Under the pieces are notes generated by a model that saw only the letters and a program-made list of their open reading frames with translations, did no database searches and was not told the origin of the DNA. Of a stretch of 41,347 nucleotides of DNA, positions 8,354 to 27,111 are shown piece by piece. The DNA comes from Bacteroidota bacterium. Its GTDB lineage: Bacteria; Bacteroidota; Bacteroidia; UKL13-3. A program made the position numbers and the translations under genes. Position 1 is the stretch's first letter; every line of letters starts with the position of its first letter. The stretch spans positions 1-41,347 of the forward strand of contig JAZKGM010000184.1 of assembly GCA_040385895.1 (NCBI GenBank), given 5' to 3'.

Positions 8354-8379
8354 GATGGGGACGTATAGTAGTGAACCGG

Positions 8380-8387
8380 CAAAGATA
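8380..8387 (-). promoter_or_regulatory. -7 promoter element (TATCTTTG) for the helicase gene
   Basis: The reverse complement of caaagata is TATCTTTG, a perfect TAnnTTTG, about 27 nt upstream of ATG 8353. Confidence 0.5.
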
Positions 8388-8638
8388 ACCGAATAGTTAA
8401 GGGCATCCGGTAAACAGGTGGATGATATAATTGATTAAAATCATGGCTTTGTTTGTGAGGTTCAAGGTGAACTTTACTAAGCCGAAATTTAAGGTTTTTT
8501 TAAGCAGGCGGACAAGGCCTGTTTAACAGGCCTTCAAAGGTTCTCAGCCTGTTCTTTCACAGCAATTGTACTACTTTACCCAACCTTTACGTTCCCGATT
8601 TGTATTTATTACCAAGTTGATATAGCTTCGCCCACCGA

Positions 8639-9049
8639 ATGTCAAGGCCTGTTAAATATTTTTTTCTCTCCATATTCATCATACTGCTTAGCGGTTCCAG
8701 CCAGCTTTCGGGCCAGCGCAGCATGGATAGCAGCAATCATTGTGCGAAGCAAGCCCTTGCCTTTCCCGATTTTGCAAATATCCGTAAAGCCATCGATGGC
8801 CTTTACATAGTTCATTCCCCGCTTCAAAAGGCTACTTATGAGATCAGCGTTTCCTTCTTCGAAAACGAAGAGGATGATGACCTTTCCTCATTCAAAAAAC
8901 ATTTTAAAAGCTGTGGCTTCCCAATCCTTTTGCTTACCCGGGTATTGGGTAATGCTTTTAGCTGCGATAATACCATCACACCTTCTTACGGGCATTATTC
9001 TTATACGTCATCGCTTGGGAATATCGGGCTCCAGGTATTCAGAATATAA
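8639..9049 (+). CDS. Hypothetical small secreted protein (doubtful)
   Basis: 136-aa ORF with a signal-peptide-like N-terminus (FFLSIFIILLSGSSQLSG). It competes with antisense ORF 8642-8827 and several broken antisense frames. No recognisable family. Confidence 0.3.
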   Translation: MSRPVKYFFLSIFIILLSGSSQLSGQRSMDSSNHCAKQALAFPDFANIRKAIDGLYIVHSPLQKATYEISVSFFENEEDDDLSSFKKHFKSCGFPILLLTRVLGNAFSCDNTITPSYGHYSYTSSLGNIGLQVFRI

Positions 9050-9207
9050 TTTAATGAAACAGGCAGGCTACCCCGGGCAGTTATTGCCTGCGCGGTAATC
9101 CTTTCGCCTGCCGTTTGGTGTGCTCTTCCAAAAGAATGCACCCGGTGTGTTGTGTTTTGCGCAATACACCTCTTTTTCCAACTAAACCAATTACTAAAAT
9201 AACAATA

Positions 9208-18986: not shown

Positions 18987-19302
18987 ATACATAGTCGTGT
19001 TAATTGATGCGATCAGGAAGTACTTTCATCGAAATTCCCCCCCGGCAAAAGTTATAGTGGTCCTGAATATTTTATCAGGAAGAAAAATGACTAAAATTTT
19101 TTTAACGTGCATACACCCGGTAATTGCTTAATGTGTGCAATAACATTCCCACAGTCAAATCAATCTCTACAGTCTCTTGTTTTTTGGTCGGAGTCAACAA
19201 TCATACCAACTATTGAATATTAAAAGGTGCTAAGCACCGGGGAAACCAATTGCACTATATATACGTAGTTAGTCTGTATCACTTTACAAAAAACAATTAA
19301 TT

Positions 19303-21054
19303 ATGAAAAAAATTCAACTCCGGTTTGCCAGGTTAACAATGGCAATGTGTGCAGGATTTCTGCTTCTGGGCAGTTCTGCATTCGCTTCCAGTCATAGGGA
19401 AGCACCATTAATCTCAAACGATCCGCTGGCGGATAACACCGATCTTTATGCTTTCAGAAGCCCTGATAACACGAATACGGTTACCATCGTGGCCAATTAC
19501 ATTCCTTTTCAATTACCGGAAGGCGGTCCGAACTGGACCTCTTTTGGCGAGAACATCCGTTATGAAGTATACGTAGATAATGATGCGACCAAACCGGGCG
19601 CTGAAATTGTTTACCGCTTCACCTTCACTAAAATGAACATGGACCCGTCTACGTTCTTTAACATCCGTTTAGGCAAAGAAAACCTTAAAACAACCTATAA
19701 ACTGGAACGCAGTATCAATGGCGGGCTTACTTTTGCAACCATTATCGCTGCAGGTGTAGTGCCTCCGCCAAATATCGGTGCACGCTCAATCGAAGGTGCT
19801 GCCGGTTTAAACACCAATTATTCAACCCTGGTTAATAATGCGATCACCACTGCCGGAACAGGCGAAAAAGTATTCTGCGGCCCTGCCGATGATCCTTTCT
19901 TTGTTGACCTTGCAGGCGCATTCGATCTTGGAAACTTCCGCCCTTCAGACAATACAACGAATGCCCCTAAAGATGGGGTTGCCCGTTTTAATGTGCATTC
20001 TATTGTGATCCAGATCCCTATTGCCACTTTACAAAAAGCAGGCAAAGATGTGAGCATGGCTGCCAATATTTTAGATCCTGATTTTGTGATCGGTGTATGG
20101 GCTGCTGCTAGCCGTCCTCAAATGAGAACACTGGATGCCAATGGTGCCGCTTCGAACTATTCAGGCAACTGGGTTCAGGTATCACGTTTGGGCATGCCTT
20201 TAACAAATGAAGCCATTATTCCGATCGGTTCAAAAGACAAATGGAATGCAACAACCCCTGCTGGCGATCTTCAGTTCGCTAAATACTTCACCAATCCTGA
20301 ATTGGCCTTATACATGGATGATTCAAAATTTGGCGGAGCAGTTCCTGCGCTAAATTCATTACGCATCCAGAGCAATTCACTGGGATCGTTTGATTTCAGG
20401 AACGGACAACCCGGCTTGTTCTCTTTAAAAGGAACAGCTGCTTTAGATGGTACAGCCCTGGCTGAATCTGCATTTGGCGGTATCTTATTACCGGATGCCA
20501 CAAGCCCGCGTGCAGTCGATCTGCTTCCGATATTTTATACGGGTGTTCCTAACATGCGTCCTTACCAGTTGGCCACAGGCAAAAACGGTGACCCATTAGC
20601 GGCCGGTAAACCTTTCATTCATAATTTCCTTCCTTCTTTAGGAGATATGTTACGCCTGAACATGGCTGTACCGGTTACCCCGAGGAACGATCCTAAATTC
20701 AGTTCCCTTGGAATTGTTTCTGCTGCCGTATTGGGATTAACAGATACCATGTACAACAAATCAACAGCGCTGCAAATGATCCCCAACATGGATGGTTTCC
20801 CGAACGGAAGACGCCTGGAGGATGACGTAACCACGATTGAGTTACAAGCGGTGAGCGGTGTTGCTTTGGCTGCGATCGGTTTATGGTATAATGATTATTC
20901 TGGTGGAACAGCAAGCCCTGTTACAGACAGGCTAGTTAAAGTGTTAAGCTTTACTGCAGGTCCTACTAAGAACGACATCAATTTTAAAGCAGTATTTCCT
21001 TACGTGCAGGAGCCATGGAGAGGTTCTGACTATTCATTACAAGACAGATTCTAA
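19303..21054 (+). CDS. DUF4331 domain protein, paralog 1 (signal peptide, no T9SS CTD)
   Basis: Signal peptide ending SAFA|SSHREAPLISNDPLADNTDLYAFRSPDN, the hallmark N-terminal motif of DUF4331. Also VFCGPADDPFFVDL, VSRLGMPLTNEA and MDGFPNGRRLEDDV. Confidence 0.9.
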   Translation: MKKIQLRFARLTMAMCAGFLLLGSSAFASSHREAPLISNDPLADNTDLYAFRSPDNTNTVTIVANYIPFQLPEGGPNWTSFGENIRYEVYVDNDATKPGAEIVYRFTFTKMNMDPSTFFNIRLGKENLKTTYKLERSINGGLTFATIIAAGVVPPPNIGARSIEGAAGLNTNYSTLVNNAITTAGTGEKVFCGPADDPFFVDLAGAFDLGNFRPSDNTTNAPKDGVARFNVHSIVIQIPIATLQKAGKDVSMAANILDPDFVIGVWAAASRPQMRTLDANGAASNYSGNWVQVSRLGMPLTNEAIIPIGSKDKWNATTPAGDLQFAKYFTNPELALYMDDSKFGGAVPALNSLRIQSNSLGSFDFRNGQPGLFSLKGTAALDGTALAESAFGGILLPDATSPRAVDLLPIFYTGVPNMRPYQLATGKNGDPLAAGKPFIHNFLPSLGDMLRLNMAVPVTPRNDPKFSSLGIVSAAVLGLTDTMYNKSTALQMIPNMDGFPNGRRLEDDVTTIELQAVSGVALAAIGLWYNDYSGGTASPVTDRLVKVLSFTAGPTKNDINFKAVFPYVQEPWRGSDYSLQDRF

Positions 21055-21090
21055 GATAAGGAAAGTTTAAATCACATAATTTTTAACGAA

Positions 21091-23133
21091 ATGAAAAAAT
21101 TGAATATACTAAGAACGATCATTGCTTCTGCGCTATTGGCAGCAACAGGCAATGTAATGGCATCAAGCCACAGGGAGGCACCCCTGATCTCAAACGATCC
21201 ACTGGCAGATAATACGGATCTGTATGCGTTCCGTAGTCCTGATAATCCGAATACGATTACCATTATCGCTAACTACATTCCTTTCGAATTGCCGCAAGGC
21301 GGGCCTAACTGGTCAACATTCGGAGAGAACATCCGTTACGAGATCAACATCGATAACGATGCATCAAAACCGGGCGCGGAAATTATTTACCGTTTCACTT
21401 TCAGCCGTATTAATGAAGATACAACCACTTTCTTTAACATCCGCCTGGGCAAACAGAATTTAAAAACAACCTACAAGCTGGAGCGCAGCACAAACGGAGG
21501 TATTTCTTTTACAACCATCGTTGCCAAAGGAACAGTTCCGCCAAATAACATTGGCCCGCGTTCTATTGAAGGAGCTGCCGGAATGGGCGCTGCCAACTAC
21601 AAAGCGTTGATGAATGCTTCGATCACTACAGCCACTTCAGGTGAGAAAGTTTTTTGCGGTCCTGCAGACGATCCTTTCTTTGTTGACCTGGGTGGTGCTT
21701 TCGACTTAGGTGGTTTCAGGAAAACCGGTGCAAGAGATGGTGTAGCTAAATTTAACTGCCATACCATTGCGATCCAGGCACCTATCGAAAACCTTCAGAA
21801 AACAGGCTTAACACTGGCCAGTGCTACCAGCATCCTTGATCCTAATTTTGTGATCGGTGTTTGGGCTACAGCAAGCCGTCCACAGATAGAAACCTTAAGC
21901 GATATGGGAGCTACTCCCGGTGTTTCAGGCAACTGGGTTCAGGTATCACGCTTAGGCATGCCTTTAACCAACGAAGCTGTTATCCCGCTTGGCGATAAAG
22001 ACAAATGGAATGCTACTTCACCGGTGAACGACCTTCCGTTTGCTAAATATTTCAGCAACCCTGAGCTGGCTTTATACATGGACGACTCCCAGTTTGGCGG
22101 AGCTGTACCAGGCCTTGCAGACCTGAGGATCCAAACCAACTCGTTGGGTAAATATGATTTCCGTAACGGAAAAGCAGGTTTATGGAGCTTGAAAGGAACT
22201 GCTGCAGTTGCAGGAACAGCATTGGATGATGCCGCTTTTGGTACCATTTTATTGCCTGATTCCATAAGCCCGCGTGCAGTGGATCTGCTTCCCCTGTTCT
22301 ATACAGGTGTGCCAAATCTTGCGCCTTACCAGTTAGCTGTTAATAAAGGTGAAAATCCTTTGGCGGCCGGTAAGCCTTTCATTAATAATTTCCTTCCTTC
22401 ATTGGGTGATATGTTACGCCTGAATATGGCTGTACCTGCAACACCAAGGAACTCTCCTGATTTCAGCCCGCTTGGAATTATCGGGGCGGCAGCTTTAGGT
22501 TTAACAGATGCACGTTTTAACGGAGACATCAGCCTTGATACGATCCCTAACATGGATGGTTTCCCGAACGGAAGACGCCTTGAGGATGACGTAACTACTA
22601 TTGAATTGCAGGCAGTAAGCGGTATCGCGCTGTTCGCTATCGGTTTGTATTACGATGATTATTTCAGCATACTTGGAGTAGGAAATCCGTTAACACAGGA
22701 CTTCAGCGATGTGTATGGTTTCAGGGCTGGTCCTACCCAGAATGATACTGCTTTCCAGGCAAATTTCCCTTACGTTCAACAACCGTGGGCAGGTTTCAGG
22801 GGTGCATCTTATGCAGCTCCGGTATTGCCTCCGGTAACTGGTTTGAAAAATCTTGGCATCGGTTCAAGAGATCAGCTGGTTGCAAACAACTATCCTAATC
22901 CGTTCAGCGGAACCACAACGATTAAATATAATGTAACCACTGATTCGAAAGTAACGGTTGTTGTATTTGATATTAAAGGACAAAAAGTAGCTACGCTTGT
23001 TAACAATGAATTGAACAAAGCAGGTGTGCATACTGTTGACTTTAATGCAGCGGGCCTGCAGGCAGGAACGTACTTTGCACAGATCACTACCAAAGACAGC
23101 CAGGGAACTGTTAAACTTCTCATCTCAAAATAA
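21091..23133 (+). CDS. DUF4331 domain protein, paralog 2, with a T9SS C-terminal sorting domain
   Basis: Colinear with paralog 1 and highly similar to it throughout. It carries an extra ~90-aa tail NYPNPFSGTTTIKYNV...VVVFDIKGQKVATLV...AGTYFAQITT...VKLLISK, which is a T9SS CTD. Confidence 0.9.
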   Translation: MKKLNILRTIIASALLAATGNVMASSHREAPLISNDPLADNTDLYAFRSPDNPNTITIIANYIPFELPQGGPNWSTFGENIRYEINIDNDASKPGAEIIYRFTFSRINEDTTTFFNIRLGKQNLKTTYKLERSTNGGISFTTIVAKGTVPPNNIGPRSIEGAAGMGAANYKALMNASITTATSGEKVFCGPADDPFFVDLGGAFDLGGFRKTGARDGVAKFNCHTIAIQAPIENLQKTGLTLASATSILDPNFVIGVWATASRPQIETLSDMGATPGVSGNWVQVSRLGMPLTNEAVIPLGDKDKWNATSPVNDLPFAKYFSNPELALYMDDSQFGGAVPGLADLRIQTNSLGKYDFRNGKAGLWSLKGTAAVAGTALDDAAFGTILLPDSISPRAVDLLPLFYTGVPNLAPYQLAVNKGENPLAAGKPFINNFLPSLGDMLRLNMAVPATPRNSPDFSPLGIIGAAALGLTDARFNGDISLDTIPNMDGFPNGRRLEDDVTTIELQAVSGIALFAIGLYYDDYFSILGVGNPLTQDFSDVYGFRAGPTQNDTAFQANFPYVQQPWAGFRGASYAAPVLPPVTGLKNLGIGSRDQLVANNYPNPFSGTTTIKYNVTTDSKVTVVVFDIKGQKVATLVNNELNKAGVHTVDFNAAGLQAGTYFAQITTKDSQGTVKLLISK

Positions 23134-23202: not shown

Positions 23203-24507
23203 ATGAAATTTTTATCAAAACTTATTTTTGCAGTATGCCTGTTAACTTGTATTACTGCCTGCGATAACAACGCACAAACAAAAAAAGATACCGGTTCGTT
23301 CATGCCATTGAAGGCACGGAACGGGGAGCTGGCAAAATCGGAAGAGTGGCCCGTTGTGCAGCAAAAAGCACAGGGATTAAATGAAAAGATCGCAAAAGAT
23401 CCTTCCGACCTTAAATCGAAATTATTATTAGCACAATTATATATGCAGGAAGCCCGCATCACAGGCGAGCATCCTTATTACTATCCTGCAACACTTACTA
23501 TTTTAGATGATGTACTAAGCCGCGATGCCAACAATTTTGAGGCATTGGCGTATAAAGCATCTGTTGAGCTTTCATTGCATCATTTTGCCGATGCGCTTGC
23601 AACAGGCTCCAAAGCAAAAAAGATCAATGCCTCCAATGGATTTATTTTTGGCGTGCTGTGTGATGCCAATGTAGAGTTAGGGAACTATGACGAAGCCGTT
23701 AAAATGTCGGAGCAGATGCAGGCATTGCGCCCGGGATTGGAATCATATTCGCGGGCATCTTATTTAAGGGAAATTTACGGGAACAATGCAGCAGCCATTG
23801 AAGCGATGAAAATGGCATACAACGCAGGCCTGCCGGGATCGGAAGAAGCTTCATGGGCAGGCAATACCCTTGCCGGGCTTTACGAAAGCACAGGCGACCT
23901 GAAGAATGCAGAGAACACCTATACACAGATATTGACACAACGGCCTTCGTATGCATTTGCTATGGCAGGCCTGGCGCGTGTTGAAAAAGCAAAAGGAAAC
24001 TATGACAAGGCGCTTGCCATGCTTGATAAAGCCATCGCCATGATGCCCGAGTTCTCTTTTTATGAAGACAAGGCTGATGTATATGCTGCACAGGGACAAC
24101 CTGAAAAAGCAAAACAGATGTATACCGAAGTGATCGGAATGCTGAATGAGGATGCTGCAAGCGGCCATTATGCCGATATGGAGCTGGCCAAGGCATACCT
24201 TCATACAGGCAATATGGATAAGGCATTGGAGCATGCTACAATAGAATATAAAAGAAGACCTGAGAACATTGATGCAAACAGCACCATGGGCTGGGTACTT
24301 TACCAGAAAGGAGAATATGCCAAAGCAAAAGAACACATGCAGAAAGCCGTTCGCATGAATACGCAAAATGCAGAATTATTATGCAAAGCAGGCATTATAG
24401 AAGCAGCTGCCGGTAACAAAGCAAAAGGCACTGAATGGGTGAAAAAAGCAATGAAAATCAACCCCAACATGCCCGAAGACCTTAAAGCCAAAGCAAAAAC
24501 GGTTTAA
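23203..24507 (+). CDS. Tetratricopeptide-repeat (TPR) lipoprotein
   Basis: Lipobox LLTCITAC|DNN. Repeated 34-aa A/Y/L-rich TPR units run throughout (e.g. NFEALAYKASVEL, GNYDEAVKMSEQMQALRP, GNYDKALAMLDKAIAMMP, GEYAKAKEHMQKAVRMN). Confidence 0.85.
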   Translation: MKFLSKLIFAVCLLTCITACDNNAQTKKDTGSFMPLKARNGELAKSEEWPVVQQKAQGLNEKIAKDPSDLKSKLLLAQLYMQEARITGEHPYYYPATLTILDDVLSRDANNFEALAYKASVELSLHHFADALATGSKAKKINASNGFIFGVLCDANVELGNYDEAVKMSEQMQALRPGLESYSRASYLREIYGNNAAAIEAMKMAYNAGLPGSEEASWAGNTLAGLYESTGDLKNAENTYTQILTQRPSYAFAMAGLARVEKAKGNYDKALAMLDKAIAMMPEFSFYEDKADVYAAQGQPEKAKQMYTEVIGMLNEDAASGHYADMELAKAYLHTGNMDKALEHATIEYKRRPENIDANSTMGWVLYQKGEYAKAKEHMQKAVRMNTQNAELLCKAGIIEAAAGNKAKGTEWVKKAMKINPNMPEDLKAKAKTV

Positions 24508-24540
24508 TACATCATTATTTATAAAACCCTGTTACATCAC

Positions 24541-24750
24541 ATGAAAAAAATTATTTTAAACGCATCACTTGTATCTGCAATTGCTCTCGGGTTAACCGCA
24601 TGCAGCAGTTCACCTGAAAAAGCGGATACCAACGAACAAAAGATAGAAGCAGAACATAGTGAAGAGCATGAGCATGCTCATGTTCACGGAGATTCAACAC
24701 ACACGCACGATCACATGCACGAAGGTGATACTTCCATGCACGATCATTAA
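24541..24750 (+). CDS. Small His/Met/acidic-rich lipoprotein (putative metal-binding)
   Basis: Lipobox ALGLTAC|SSS gives a mature peptide of ~49 aa. The last 34 residues contain 11 His (EAEHSEEHEHAHVHGDSTHTHDHMHEGDTSMHDH). Confidence 0.7.
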   Translation: MKKIILNASLVSAIALGLTACSSSPEKADTNEQKIEAEHSEEHEHAHVHGDSTHTHDHMHEGDTSMHDH

Positions 24751-24759
24751 TTGTTTCCG

Positions 24760-24797
24760 GCAGAAGGCTCAATAAAATATTGGGTCTTCTGCTTTTG
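24760..24797 (+). terminator. Hairpin terminator/attenuator between the His-rich gene and the TonB-dependent receptor
   Basis: Stem gcagaag / cttctgc, extendable through an AT-rich inner stem, followed by ttttg. Confidence 0.5.
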
Positions 24798-24849
24798 TAA
24801 AAACCACTTACTGAACGATAACGTATCTGTAAAACAACCTGTACATACG

Positions 24850-27111
24850 ATGAAAAAAAATATACAATTTCTCTTTTTATTGATCACACTTTTAACCGGG
24901 CATGCAGCATTCTCGCAAGGGGCTTCTGTTTCGGGGAAAGTGACCGATGCTTCGCTGCAACCGGTTTATGGTGCGGAGGTTTCCCTTAAAGAAACCAGCA
25001 TTAAAACCTTTACCGATTCGAACGGGGTGTTTGTATTAAACAACATCGGCAATGGAAAATATACGGTAAGCATCACCAGGCGTGGTTATGAACCACAACT
25101 CAAAAACATTGAAATAAAAAATAACAGGCCGGCTAACATTGCTTTCAACCTTAAAGCAGATTACCTCAACCTGAAAGAGGTAGTGATCACCGGGGATAAC
25201 AGCACACAGGCAAATACCATTGTTAACCGCATTGATATGCAGCTACGCCCGGTGAATTCATCGCAGGACCTGCTGCGCCTGGTACCGGGTTTATTTATAG
25301 CCCAGCATGCAGGCGGGGGAAAAGCCGAACAGATCTTTTTAAGGGGATTTGATGTGGACCATGGAACCGACTTTGCCATTTATGTAGACGGAATGCCGGT
25401 GAACATGCCTTCGCATGCCCACGGCCAGGGTTATGCCGACCTGCATTTCCTGATCCCTGAGACCGTGCGCGAACTGGAAGTGAACAAAGGTCCTTATGCC
25501 ACCAAATATGGCGACCTGGCTACATCCGGATCGGGAGAGTTTAAAACGCTGAATGCCTTAAGCAAAAACCAGGTGAAGCTTGAATATGGCATGTTCAACA
25601 CACAACGTATGCTGGGAATGTTTAATGTACTGGATAAAAAACACTTGTTCTCCAGGAAAAAAGAAAACCTGTATGTAGCAGGTGAGTACCGGTATTCGGA
25701 TTCCTATTTTCAAAGCTCGCAGGATTTTAAGCGTGTTAATTTATTTTCTAAATACACAGGCGTGCTTAACAACGGATCGCAGCTTTCCATCACACTCTCC
25801 ACGTTTCAAAGCAACTGGGATGCATCGGGCCAGATCCCGGATCGTAAGGTAAATGATGGCACCATCAGCCGTTTTGGAAGCATAGACAACACAGAAGGCG
25901 GAGAAACAGGCCGCACCAACTTTAATGTAACCTATACCAAGCCTTTAGAGAACGGTTCGTTCAAGAACCAGGTGTATTACAGCCGTTACGATTTTAAACT
26001 CTATTCCAACTTTACTTTCTTTTTAAATGATTCTGTAAATGGCGACCAGATCAAGCAGGAAGACCACCGAAACATTTATGGCTATACCAGTACCTTAAAC
26101 CTGAACAACTACCTGGGTTCAAAAAAACTAAGTTCAACTTTTGGCGCAGGGGTAAGGTATGATAATTCGAACATCAGCCTTGACCACACCGTAAAAAGGG
26201 AATTTTTAAATGAGATCGTAAGGGGAACACTGAACCAGGTGAATGCATGGGTTTATGTAGACGAGAACCTGGAACTAACATCTAAACTGAGGTTAAACCT
26301 TGGCTTAAGAGGAGATATATATAATTTCGATTTCAAGAACCAAACCGTTGATACCGCTTCGGGAAATGTAACCAAAGCTGTATTCAGTCCAAAGCTGAAC
26401 CTTTTTTATACGCTGAATCAATCTGTTCAGTTGTTCGCAAAATCAGGATATGGTTTTCACTCGAACGATGCAAGAGCAGTTGTTGTGGGGAAATTAGAAA
26501 ATACGCTGCCTAAAGCATTGGGCTATGAAGTGGGTTCTACTTTTAAATTGGGAAAACGGGCATTGGTGAACGTGGCTTTATGGGGCCTCGACCTGGAGAG
26601 TGAACTCGTATATGTAGGCGATGAAGGAATTGTGGAAGCAGCCGGAAGGTCGAGAAGGTTGGGTGTTGATTTTGGCGTGCGTTACCAGCTGACGCAGTAT
26701 TTATTTTTAGATGCTGATGTGAACATGAACAACGGACGTTTGCTGGATGAACCGGCAGGTGCGAACCGCATTCCGCTTGCACCAACATTTACCAGCATTG
26801 GTGGCATAAGCTATAAACGCCCGGCAGGGTTCAGCGGAAGCGTTCGCTACCGTTATATAGGCGATAGGGCTGCTACAGAAGATAATTCCATCATTGCACA
26901 TGGTTATTTTTTAGTGGATGCAGTGATCAACTACACAAAAGGAAATTACCAGTTTGGGCTAACAGCTGAAAACCTGTTGAACCGCGAATGGAAAGAGGCG
27001 CAGTTTGCAACAGAAAGCCGCCTGCAAAACGAAACCCAATCGGTTAACGAGATCCATTATACACCAGGCACACCTTTATTTATAAGAGGCAGTGTGAGTT
27101 ATTTTTTCTAG
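24850..27111 (+). CDS. TonB-dependent outer-membrane receptor (CarboxypepD_reg N-domain, plug, 22-strand barrel), non-SusC type
   Basis: Signal peptide MKKNIQFLFLLITLLTGHAAFSQ, then the SGKVTDA...GAEVSL...TDSNGVF.L.NI..GKYTVSI...GY carboxypeptidase-regulatory fold. Plug motifs are LLRLVPGLFIAQHAGGGKAEQIFLRGFD and DGMPVN. The C-terminus ends in an aromatic residue (...SVSYFF). No SusD partner gene follows. Start at ATG 24850 rather than TTG 24751. Confidence 0.9.
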   Translation: MKKNIQFLFLLITLLTGHAAFSQGASVSGKVTDASLQPVYGAEVSLKETSIKTFTDSNGVFVLNNIGNGKYTVSITRRGYEPQLKNIEIKNNRPANIAFNLKADYLNLKEVVITGDNSTQANTIVNRIDMQLRPVNSSQDLLRLVPGLFIAQHAGGGKAEQIFLRGFDVDHGTDFAIYVDGMPVNMPSHAHGQGYADLHFLIPETVRELEVNKGPYATKYGDLATSGSGEFKTLNALSKNQVKLEYGMFNTQRMLGMFNVLDKKHLFSRKKENLYVAGEYRYSDSYFQSSQDFKRVNLFSKYTGVLNNGSQLSITLSTFQSNWDASGQIPDRKVNDGTISRFGSIDNTEGGETGRTNFNVTYTKPLENGSFKNQVYYSRYDFKLYSNFTFFLNDSVNGDQIKQEDHRNIYGYTSTLNLNNYLGSKKLSSTFGAGVRYDNSNISLDHTVKREFLNEIVRGTLNQVNAWVYVDENLELTSKLRLNLGLRGDIYNFDFKNQTVDTASGNVTKAVFSPKLNLFYTLNQSVQLFAKSGYGFHSNDARAVVVGKLENTLPKALGYEVGSTFKLGKRALVNVALWGLDLESELVYVGDEGIVEAAGRSRRLGVDFGVRYQLTQYLFLDADVNMNNGRLLDEPAGANRIPLAPTFTSIGGISYKRPAGFSGSVRYRYIGDRAATEDNSIIAHGYFLVDAVINYTKGNYQFGLTAENLLNREWKEAQFATESRLQNETQSVNEIHYTPGTPLFIRGSVSYFF

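Follow-up and report, generated by a model that had tools for sequence, protein, structure and literature searches.

In the 41,347-nt contig JAZKGM010000184.1 of a Bacteroidota metagenome-assembled genome (MAG, GCA_040385895.1), called here the window and analysed over its whole length, a 69-aa open reading frame (ORF) encodes a small histidine-rich lipoprotein. Comparison with its homologues shows it to be a genuine gene, under selection at the protein level. The family that it forms with them is rare, small and unnamed, and is best filed, on its sequence features, as a new family among the known types of His-rich binders. In this genome, the gene lies between those of a TPR protein and of a TonB-dependent transporter (TBDT). 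We favour, with moderate confidence for the reading as a whole, that the product is a lipid-anchored, flexibly tethered His-ladder peptide, which would bind divalent transition-metal ions at the outer membrane.

The ORF occupies positions 24541..24750 of the forward strand, from the ATG at 24541 to the TAA stop codon included (24748-24750), and its full translation is MKKIILNASLVSAIALGLTACSSSPEKADTNEQKIEAEHSEEHEHAHVHGDSTHTHDHMHEGDTSMHDH, which can be divided into MKKIILNASLVSAIALGLTAC and SSSPEKADTNEQKIEAEHSEEHEHAHVHGDSTHTHDHMHEGDTSMHDH. A signal peptide of the signal peptidase II type is read from the sequence (24541..24603, + strand): it consists of a MKK n-region, a hydrophobic core (IILNASLVSAIALG) and a lipobox L-T-A-C that matches the pattern [LVI][ASTVI][GAS]C and ends on Cys21 (codon 24601-24603), the only Cys of the product and its presumed lipidation site. 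An acidic and polar low-complexity linker follows, at residues 22-38 (SSSPEKADTNEQKIEAE, 24604..24654, + strand), whose length and sequence vary among homologues. The C-terminal histidine ladder, delimited by the homologue alignment, covers residues 43-69 (HEHAHVHGDSTHTHDHMHEGDTSMHDH, 24667..24747, + strand). The eleven His are at positions 39, 43, 45, 47, 49, 54, 56, 58, 60, 67 and 69, and the two Met of the His-rich tail at 59 and 66, so that the last 34 residues hold 11 His and 2 Met. The first-pass annotation, made from the DNA letters, had described the coordinates, the strand, the lipobox Cys21 and this composition correctly. Its statement that one third of the tail is His holds for the last 34 residues, but not for the mature chain of 48 residues, which contains 11 His (23%), 13 Asp and Glu, and 2 Lys and Arg.

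Such a density of His is rare in this assembly. Reading the entire 3.35 Mb in six frames gives 20,095 ORFs of 40 aa or more, of which 3 reach at least 11 His in a stretch of 34 residues, and the two others are R/H/P-rich, antisense-like frames devoid of signal peptide. Because so few ORFs reach this density, and because three independent homologues exist, the ORF is not a chance feature.

These homologues were recovered by an exhaustive phmmer search of 1.84 billion representative proteins, which returned exactly three sequences (P0002-P0004, of 70, 63 and 69 aa), 38-46% identical, with E-values of 7.5e-7 to 1.5e-4 in this search, and of 1e-27 to 6e-24 with a profile. Their lipoboxes are FSAC, FTSC and MTSC, the Cys being kept in all four members of the family, and all four end on a common motif, HxHEHxHGD[ST]xH[ST]HxHxH[ED]GDTx[ML]H[AD]H-COOH. 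The ORF of the window displays every trait by which the family (alignment A1) was delimited, namely a length of 60-70 aa, a lipobox Cys, a variable acidic linker and the C-terminal motif. Across the four members 18 columns are invariant: M1, C21, S40, ten His, two Gly, two Asp and one Thr. Fifteen of them fall within residues 43-69 (H43, H45, H47, H49, G50, D51, H54, H56, H58, H60, G62, D63, T64, H67 and H69), a pattern that is position-specific and goes beyond plain richness in His.

The four genes were also compared at the codon level. More than one codon is used at 14 of the 18 invariant residues, and over the last 28 codons amino-acid identity is 57-68%, compared with an identity of 36-46% at third positions. 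Synonymous codon turnover at conserved residues implies that selection acts on the protein; together with the conservation of the Cys and of the His motif in three homologues, it bears out the earlier proposal of a genuine lipoprotein gene.

No description of this lipoprotein family was found in the literature, and searches of Pfam, NCBIfam and PDB sequences with the ORF product gave no meaningful match to any characterised family; weak NCBIfam matches fall in about the first 50 residues and mainly cover the lipoprotein signal. A word-indexed homologue search with the single protein found nothing. When 40 relatives were searched with it in six frames, similarity was limited to the N-terminal part, mostly the lipoprotein signal (E at least 0.02), and the one match inspected, in L003, is an unrelated small lipoprotein. 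Counts of the family's rarity have to be read with the fact that small ORFs of this type are under-called. The window illustrates it: the exact 69-aa sequence is not in a collection of 15 billion proteins, in which the exact sequences of the TPR protein, the TBDT and the first DUF4331 protein of the same contig are present. Gene callers missed the ORF, as the first-pass annotation had anticipated.

A second small lipoprotein is encoded in the same genome (76 aa, G000:C144:828-1058, minus strand; also L222:429-659). Its C-terminus is SHEGHEGHSH and its gene adjoins that of an lptB-like ABC (ATP-binding cassette) ATPase. The counterpart in G001, from the same genus, is without His tail and adjoins a near-identical ATPase gene.

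The cluster in which the ORF is found is headed by two DUF4331 paralogues (19303..23133, + strand; assigned by Pfam), the second of which has a sorting domain of the type IX secretion system (T9SS). The TPR protein gene follows (23203..24507, + strand; Pfam TPR families), and the ORF starts 33 nt after its end, as first noted, with no terminator in the gap. On the other side, the ATG of the TBDT gene (24850..27111, + strand; CarboxypepD_reg, Plug and β-barrel, from Pfam and orthologues) is 99 nt past the ORF stop codon. In this interval, starting 8 nt past the stop, folding brings out a terminator-like hairpin (24759..24798, + strand) with a 16-bp stem and a 3-nt loop, followed by TTTTGT; its ΔG is -22.4 kcal/mol (z = -4.73), and none of 200 shuffled sequences folds as well. 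Since no terminator separates the ORF from the TPR gene and a strong hairpin is found 3' of the ORF, the DUF4331-TPR unit would seem to end with the ORF, the TBDT being served by its own upstream element. This goes against a role of the ORF as a leader of the TBDT gene.

The closest relatives of this region were found by a search with the first DUF4331 protein; scans with the TBDT had recovered more distant ones. The Logan assembly L223 (run SRR25779728) has 94.7% DNA identity with the window over 5.9 kb (upstream sequence, both DUF4331 genes and TPR gene) and 92.9% at the 5' end of the TBDT gene, but only 79 nt separate its TPR stop codon from its TBDT ATG: homology ends at 24509 and returns at about 24839. 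A segment of about 329 nt of the window (24510..24838, + strand), comprising the ORF, the hairpin and part of the spacer, is thus not in L223. In L224-L231, whose first DUF4331 protein is 89-90% identical, the TPR-TBDT spacer is 62-67 nt long, and in L024 and L025 the TPR gene ends some 70-100 nt before the TBDT gene, with no small ORF between. The position of the ORF is therefore not conserved, and this comparison shows that it is, in the relatives at hand, an accessory insert and not a core part of the DUF4331-TPR-TBDT module. Gain by insertion appears more parsimonious than repeated loss, because every other relative examined is without the segment and the homologues of the ORF are so distant. 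The first-pass annotation had taken the position of the ORF as an argument for its reality; that argument falls, since L223 and the 89-90% identical relatives keep the flanking genes with only 62-79 nt between them. It had also offered the absence of the ORF from relatives keeping the flanking genes as a ground for rejecting it. This absence is what we observe, in L223 and others, and it demotes the gene to an accessory one, which is still real.

One may ask whether the ORF is non-functional in this genome, being either a chance ORF, a chimera of the MAG assembly, or the unexpressed remnant of a recent acquisition. The ORF is missing from the annotation on which the protein collection was built and from the nearest relatives, and the assembly is a MAG of 376 contigs. 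However, the reading frame is unbroken and includes a canonical lipobox and the whole motif, the homologues are under protein-level selection, and the junctions of the insert are clean within a collinear region of 93-95% identity, so that we hold this explanation to be very unlikely.

Between the hairpin and the TBDT start codon, a ACGTATCTG element (24821..24829, + strand) is common to the 62-67-nt spacers of the relatives, and it resembles a CGTATATAG element upstream of the DUF4331 genes. The TBDT-proximal spacer containing ACGTATCTG looks like the ancestral upstream region of the TBDT gene. In several genomes, both the first DUF4331 gene and the TBDT gene are preceded, at a distance of 30-60 nt, by a CGTATATAG or ACGTATCT(A/G) element in either orientation (window 19252-19266 and 24821-24829; L024 near 701 and 5974; L050, L052 and L066 upstream of the first DUF4331 gene). 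Elements of the ACGTATCTG/CGTATATAG type may be a shared operator or promoter of the module. The sequence TATATACG occurs once in the 41-kb window. An Rfam scan of the window found no riboswitch near the cluster.

The surroundings of the homologues differ from one to the next. P0003 (L186, a contig of 630 nt) starts 71 nt after the stop codon of a TBDT gene, and the C-terminus of this TBDT (...NVDWNEAQFDTESKLKNENTSVSELHFTPGTPFFIKGSLTLFF) clearly belongs to the clade of the window TBDT; the link to TonB-dependent uptake that had been suspected in the window is thereby found a second time. P0004 (L184, from the NCBI MAG GCA_038222995.1) starts 31 nt after a SusD-like gene, which closely resembles the one preceding a 65%-identical TBDT in the metagenome locus L104, and the opposite strand of L184 encodes MbnP and a CxxCH protein. 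The genome of P0004 also contains, on one contig, HupE, a His protein with a transmembrane (TM) segment and a TBDT of the same clade (44% identity), and on another contig two DUF4331 genes. The contig of P0002 (528 nt) gives no context. The family appears to adjoin outer-membrane uptake genes repeatedly and in variable order, which fits a small accessory gene; such a variable order does not fit a leader peptide of one particular downstream gene.

This bears on the possibility of a regulatory leader ORF, in which the passage of transcription through the hairpin into the TBDT gene would be set by attenuation at His codons, or by a CutF-like nascent peptide that is exported and senses metal. The eleven His codons do end 8 nt before the strong hairpin that precedes this gene, and CutF-type control by a nascent exported peptide has reportedly been described in a bioRxiv preprint. 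But the homologues lie downstream of a TBDT gene or before convergent genes, without a comparable hairpin, and the conservation of the G, D and T positions and of the lipobox Cys exceeds what His codon content would require. Close relatives, moreover, express the TBDT without such a leader. Finally, with 69 codons, a signal peptide and neither placement nor hairpin conserved, the ORF is unlike classical leader peptides, those of the his-operon type included. This is to us the least credible of the explanations.

AlphaFold2 predicted the ladder as a β-hairpin, with residues 41-49 and 52-60 as its strands and G50-D51 as the turn. The pLDDT (predicted local distance difference test) score of the hairpin was about 90 with the 4-sequence alignment, and the same hairpin was obtained for the homologue P0004 folded alone (pLDDT 72-78). 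Linker residues 20-34 had a pLDDT below 50 and are predicted to be disordered. The register of such a hairpin would place H43 opposite H58, H45 opposite H56 and H47 opposite H54, on one face of the hairpin.

In the reading that we favour, cleavage by signal peptidase II would leave a lipidated Cys21 anchoring a 48-residue chain to the outer membrane, with some 17 disordered acidic residues as a tether. The conserved 27-residue C-terminus would fold, alone or on metal binding, into the β-hairpin with His on one face, and the last two His and a Met would stand in a short GDTxMHxH tail. The ladder would bind divalent transition-metal ions (Zn, Ni, Co or Cu being candidates), and the protein, facing the periplasm, would, on its tether, accept or buffer metal coming from the adjacent TBDT and DUF4331 proteins. 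The ORF and its own terminator would form an accessory cassette, particular to this lineage and inserted 3' of the TPR gene, which would presumably be transcribed by read-through from the DUF4331-TPR unit. Lipidation, metal binding, topology, fold and hand-off role are all proposed by us from the features described above. A variant of this scheme would make the product a minimal lipid-tethered "protein metallophore", in which the 27-residue β-hairpin, on its leash, would capture free metal ions at the outer membrane, give them to or take them from a TBDT clade importing metal with no small-molecule chelator, and spread among strains as a cassette of about 300 bp (ORF and terminator); we regard it as rather unlikely.

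The orientation at the membrane was judged from the residues following the lipobox. The lipoprotein export signal (LES) of surface-exposed lipoproteins in Bacteroidota places acidic residues at +3/+4 after the Cys, with the forms CS(D/E)2-3, K-(D/E)2 and Q-A-(D/E)2, and in B. thetaiotaomicron these acidic residues are needed for export (PMC6222051). The window protein reads C-S-S-S-P-E-K, with no acidic residue at +3/+4 and hence no LES, and the homologues read CSNEEK, CGGSEK and CGGDNK. Because these acidic positions are missing and the family shows no conservation in the stretch that follows the Cys, the window protein most likely faces the periplasm.

The main rival to this orientation is a surface-exposed capture lipoprotein, whose tethered His ladder would gather extracellular metal ions and hand them on to the TBDT, as an ion-level counterpart of BtuG, hemophores or SusD. 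Bacteroidota commonly pair their TBDTs with surface lipoproteins, of which SusD and HmuY are examples. BtuG is reported to be another (PMC6143338). In line with such a role, one homologue comes directly after a SusD-like gene and another directly after a TBDT gene, the CSNEE of P0002 is partly LES-like, and the second DUF4331 paralogue, as a T9SS cargo, suggests that part of the module is at the cell surface. Against it stand the C-S-S-S-P-E of the window protein, which lacks the acidic +3/+4 needed in B. thetaiotaomicron, and the poor conservation of this region within the family. On balance we consider surface capture unlikely, though it is the most serious of the competing explanations. The ORF product shares with BtuG, SusD-like proteins and HmuY a gene position beside a TBDT and a proposed handling of substrate. 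But these proteins are folded domains of 20-60 kDa exposed at the surface through an export signal, whereas the ORF product has a mature peptide of 48 residues, no LES and no homology to them.

The product thus compares, by its sequence traits, with His-rich metal binders and with partner lipoproteins of TBDTs, and is a member of none of these groups. Hpn and Hpn-like of Helicobacter pylori, and the His-rich tails of UreE, SlyD and HypB, bind several Ni(II) or Zn(II) ions and act as buffers or donors. They are likewise short and dominated by His and acidic residues, but they are cytoplasmic, without signal peptide or lipid anchor, and have runs of His and pairs of Cys; the ORF product has a signal peptide, no Cys beyond that of the lipobox, and no match to these families or to a PDB entry. 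Polyhistidine-triad (Pht) lipoproteins of streptococci, and the N-terminal His stretches of ZinT and ZnuA, capture Zn(II) and pass it to an importer. These are also lipoproteins or periplasmic proteins with His motifs, but Pht proteins are large, belong to Gram-positive bacteria and repeat HxxHxH triads in folded domains, and no Pfam match relates the ORF product to them.

SilE and PcoE, which are accessory and vary among strains, are exported proteins of small size whose intrinsic disorder gives way to structure when metal is bound. The ORF product resembles them in its size, export, disorder, accessory status and variability among strains. This resemblance raises the possibility of a periplasmic sponge of the SilE or PcoE kind, protecting the cell from surplus metal and unrelated to uptake. 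The product is indeed small, acidic, His- and Met-containing and mostly disordered by prediction; relatives with about 90% identity for the first DUF4331 protein have a CzcB/RND (resistance-nodulation-division) efflux pair directly upstream of the DUF4331 cluster; and, like many resistance determinants, the gene is accessory and varies from strain to strain. However, SilE and PcoE are soluble proteins, encoded in efflux or resistance operons, that bind Ag(I) or Cu(I) at HxxM/MxxH sites, whereas the ORF product has a predicted lipid anchor, a HxHxHxH ladder and two Met only, which makes a SilE-type Cu(I)/Ag(I) site unlikely. No Pfam or NCBIfam match ties it to a characterised family, SilE/PcoE included, and no efflux or resistance gene adjoins it in the window, where its neighbours (DUF4331, TPR and TBDT) form a module of the uptake type. 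A metal sponge of this kind therefore seems quite improbable to us.

Several observations weigh against the tethered, periplasm-facing metal binder that we favour. Only four members of the family are known, two of them on contigs of 528 and 630 nt, so that statistics on context are thin, and the confidence of the AlphaFold2 models is drawn from these four sequences. The ORF is not in the closest relatives that keep both flanking genes (L223, L224-L231, L024 and L025), which means that the module works without it. The A1 profile found no family member in any of 162 other TBDT loci, taken from genomes and metagenomes, and no true member in a six-frame search of 400 sampled genomes of the class. 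Regarding orientation, P0002 has the partly LES-like CSNEE, and the LES rule comes from work on Bacteroides and Capnocytophaga and was not drawn up for this lineage, so that its outcome is indicative only. Lastly, cues on the metal are conflicting: HupE and NikR near relatives of the TBDT point to Ni or Co, and MbnP near P0004 to Cu. In this assembly, which is an 88.6%-complete MAG, urease, NiFe hydrogenase, ZnuA and HupE were not found and a ZIP transporter is present, a combination that weakly favours Zn.

All profile matches in the 400 genomes were reviewed, the ten longest-reaching ones by sequence, and they were mainly signal peptides or acidic His-containing linkers of longer lipoproteins, for instance those with a GHHHIIIDG domain. 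Three lipoproteins from other genomes of the same class (L187:1501-2061, L188:1501-2025 and L193:1123-1653; 174-186 aa) have a similar acidic His-containing linker after the lipobox (e.g. MHDHGDSMHSHDEG) and, beyond it, a domain that includes GHHHIIIDG. Among lipoproteins of Bacteroidota, the turn motif HGDSxHSH may be an element for metal binding that recurs.

The module itself, DUF4331-(DUF4331)-TPR-TBDT, recurs in Saprospiraceae, Chitinophagales, Hymenobacter and other Bacteroidota. The literature search found no paper mentioning DUF4331. The solved structures nearest to the TBDT are YncD and PqqU (E about 1e-11). A stretch of its plug that contains His (residues ~176-200, VDHGTD...PVNMPSHAHGQGYADLHF) is conserved, recurs in the orthologues of G025 and G420, and could be a metal contact site; the barrel loops are without His-rich stretch. 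No orthologue of the TBDT was found in 24 genomes (G001-G024, 16 from the same genus and 8 from the same family), where DUF4331 and TPR genes were not searched for, and the TBDT is common elsewhere in the phylum. The cluster is probably accessory in this genus, and was possibly acquired horizontally.

In many loci the genes of a HupE/UreJ_2 permease and of an unrelated protein of 85-170 aa lie between TPR and TBDT, the latter protein being of the A2 family described next. A scan of the 162 loci for His-rich ORFs returned, apart from one lipoprotein in L070 and a cytoplasmic protein next to NikR in L179, only a TM-anchored His-rich family (alignment A2; e.g. L027:5386-5757, L035:5326-5727, L031:5497-5880 and L216:2859-3239). 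Its members have an N-terminal TM helix, the signature AHTFW..QHMATVH.ENG.YH.H, a variable and often His-rich middle part and a C-terminal SPPPK[A]. The A2 profile detected them in 18 of the 162 loci, always directly upstream of the TBDT gene and usually after the HupE/UreJ_2 gene. They have no Pfam match and were not found in the window genome. They share with the 69-aa lipoprotein the slot between TPR/HupE and TBDT, a membrane tether and a His cluster, but they differ by an unrelated sequence, a TM helix in place of a lipid anchor, a length of 85-170 aa and a conserved C-terminal PPP. The idea that the lipoprotein is a functional replacement of the A2 protein is weakened by the presence of both families in genome G420.

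The L070 lipoprotein (L070:2831-3211, 126 aa, lipobox AYSC, with DSLGHxH repeats and a GGHGGHGGHGGGH tail) comes from a MAG that bears the label "Bacteroidetes bacterium isolate SAP1"; its gene precedes that of a same-clade TBDT by about 3 kb, and it appears to be a convergent His-rich lipoprotein near this type of TBDT. More distant relatives of the TBDT are flanked by NikR (L078:5515-5931 and 8367-9077; L079:5399-5800; L128:2609-3319; L179:908-1937), and in L078 a palindrome, GTGTTACT-N11-AGTAACAC, lies between NikR and the TBDT gene. The cytoplasmic protein of L179 is 98 aa long and about 40% His. Some distant relatives are flanked by a 236-aa DsbD_2-like membrane protein with a HTHKHIH...HTHTHTH loop. 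In L224:966-6456, and also in L225-L227, the genes of a CzcB-type adaptor and of a 1449-aa RND pump fused to an OEP domain are directly upstream of the DUF4331-TPR-TBDT cluster, which links efflux and putative uptake genes in one metal island. Gene content thus places this TBDT clade in metal-handling neighbourhoods, its role towards a substrate being putative.

The result stands as a well-supported annotation accompanied by a hypothesis, and not as the discovery of a mechanism. If our reading is right, the protein would be among the smallest envelope metal-handling proteins described, the HxHxHxH-GD-xxHxHxHxH hairpin would be a compact metal-binding module, and the gene would exemplify the small ORFs omitted by gene callers. 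DUF4331-TPR-TBDT clusters are widespread and uncharacterised in Bacteroidota, and the presence of the gene in one strain and not in another, about 95% identical, offers a natural, isogenic-like comparison for the tuning of metal uptake.

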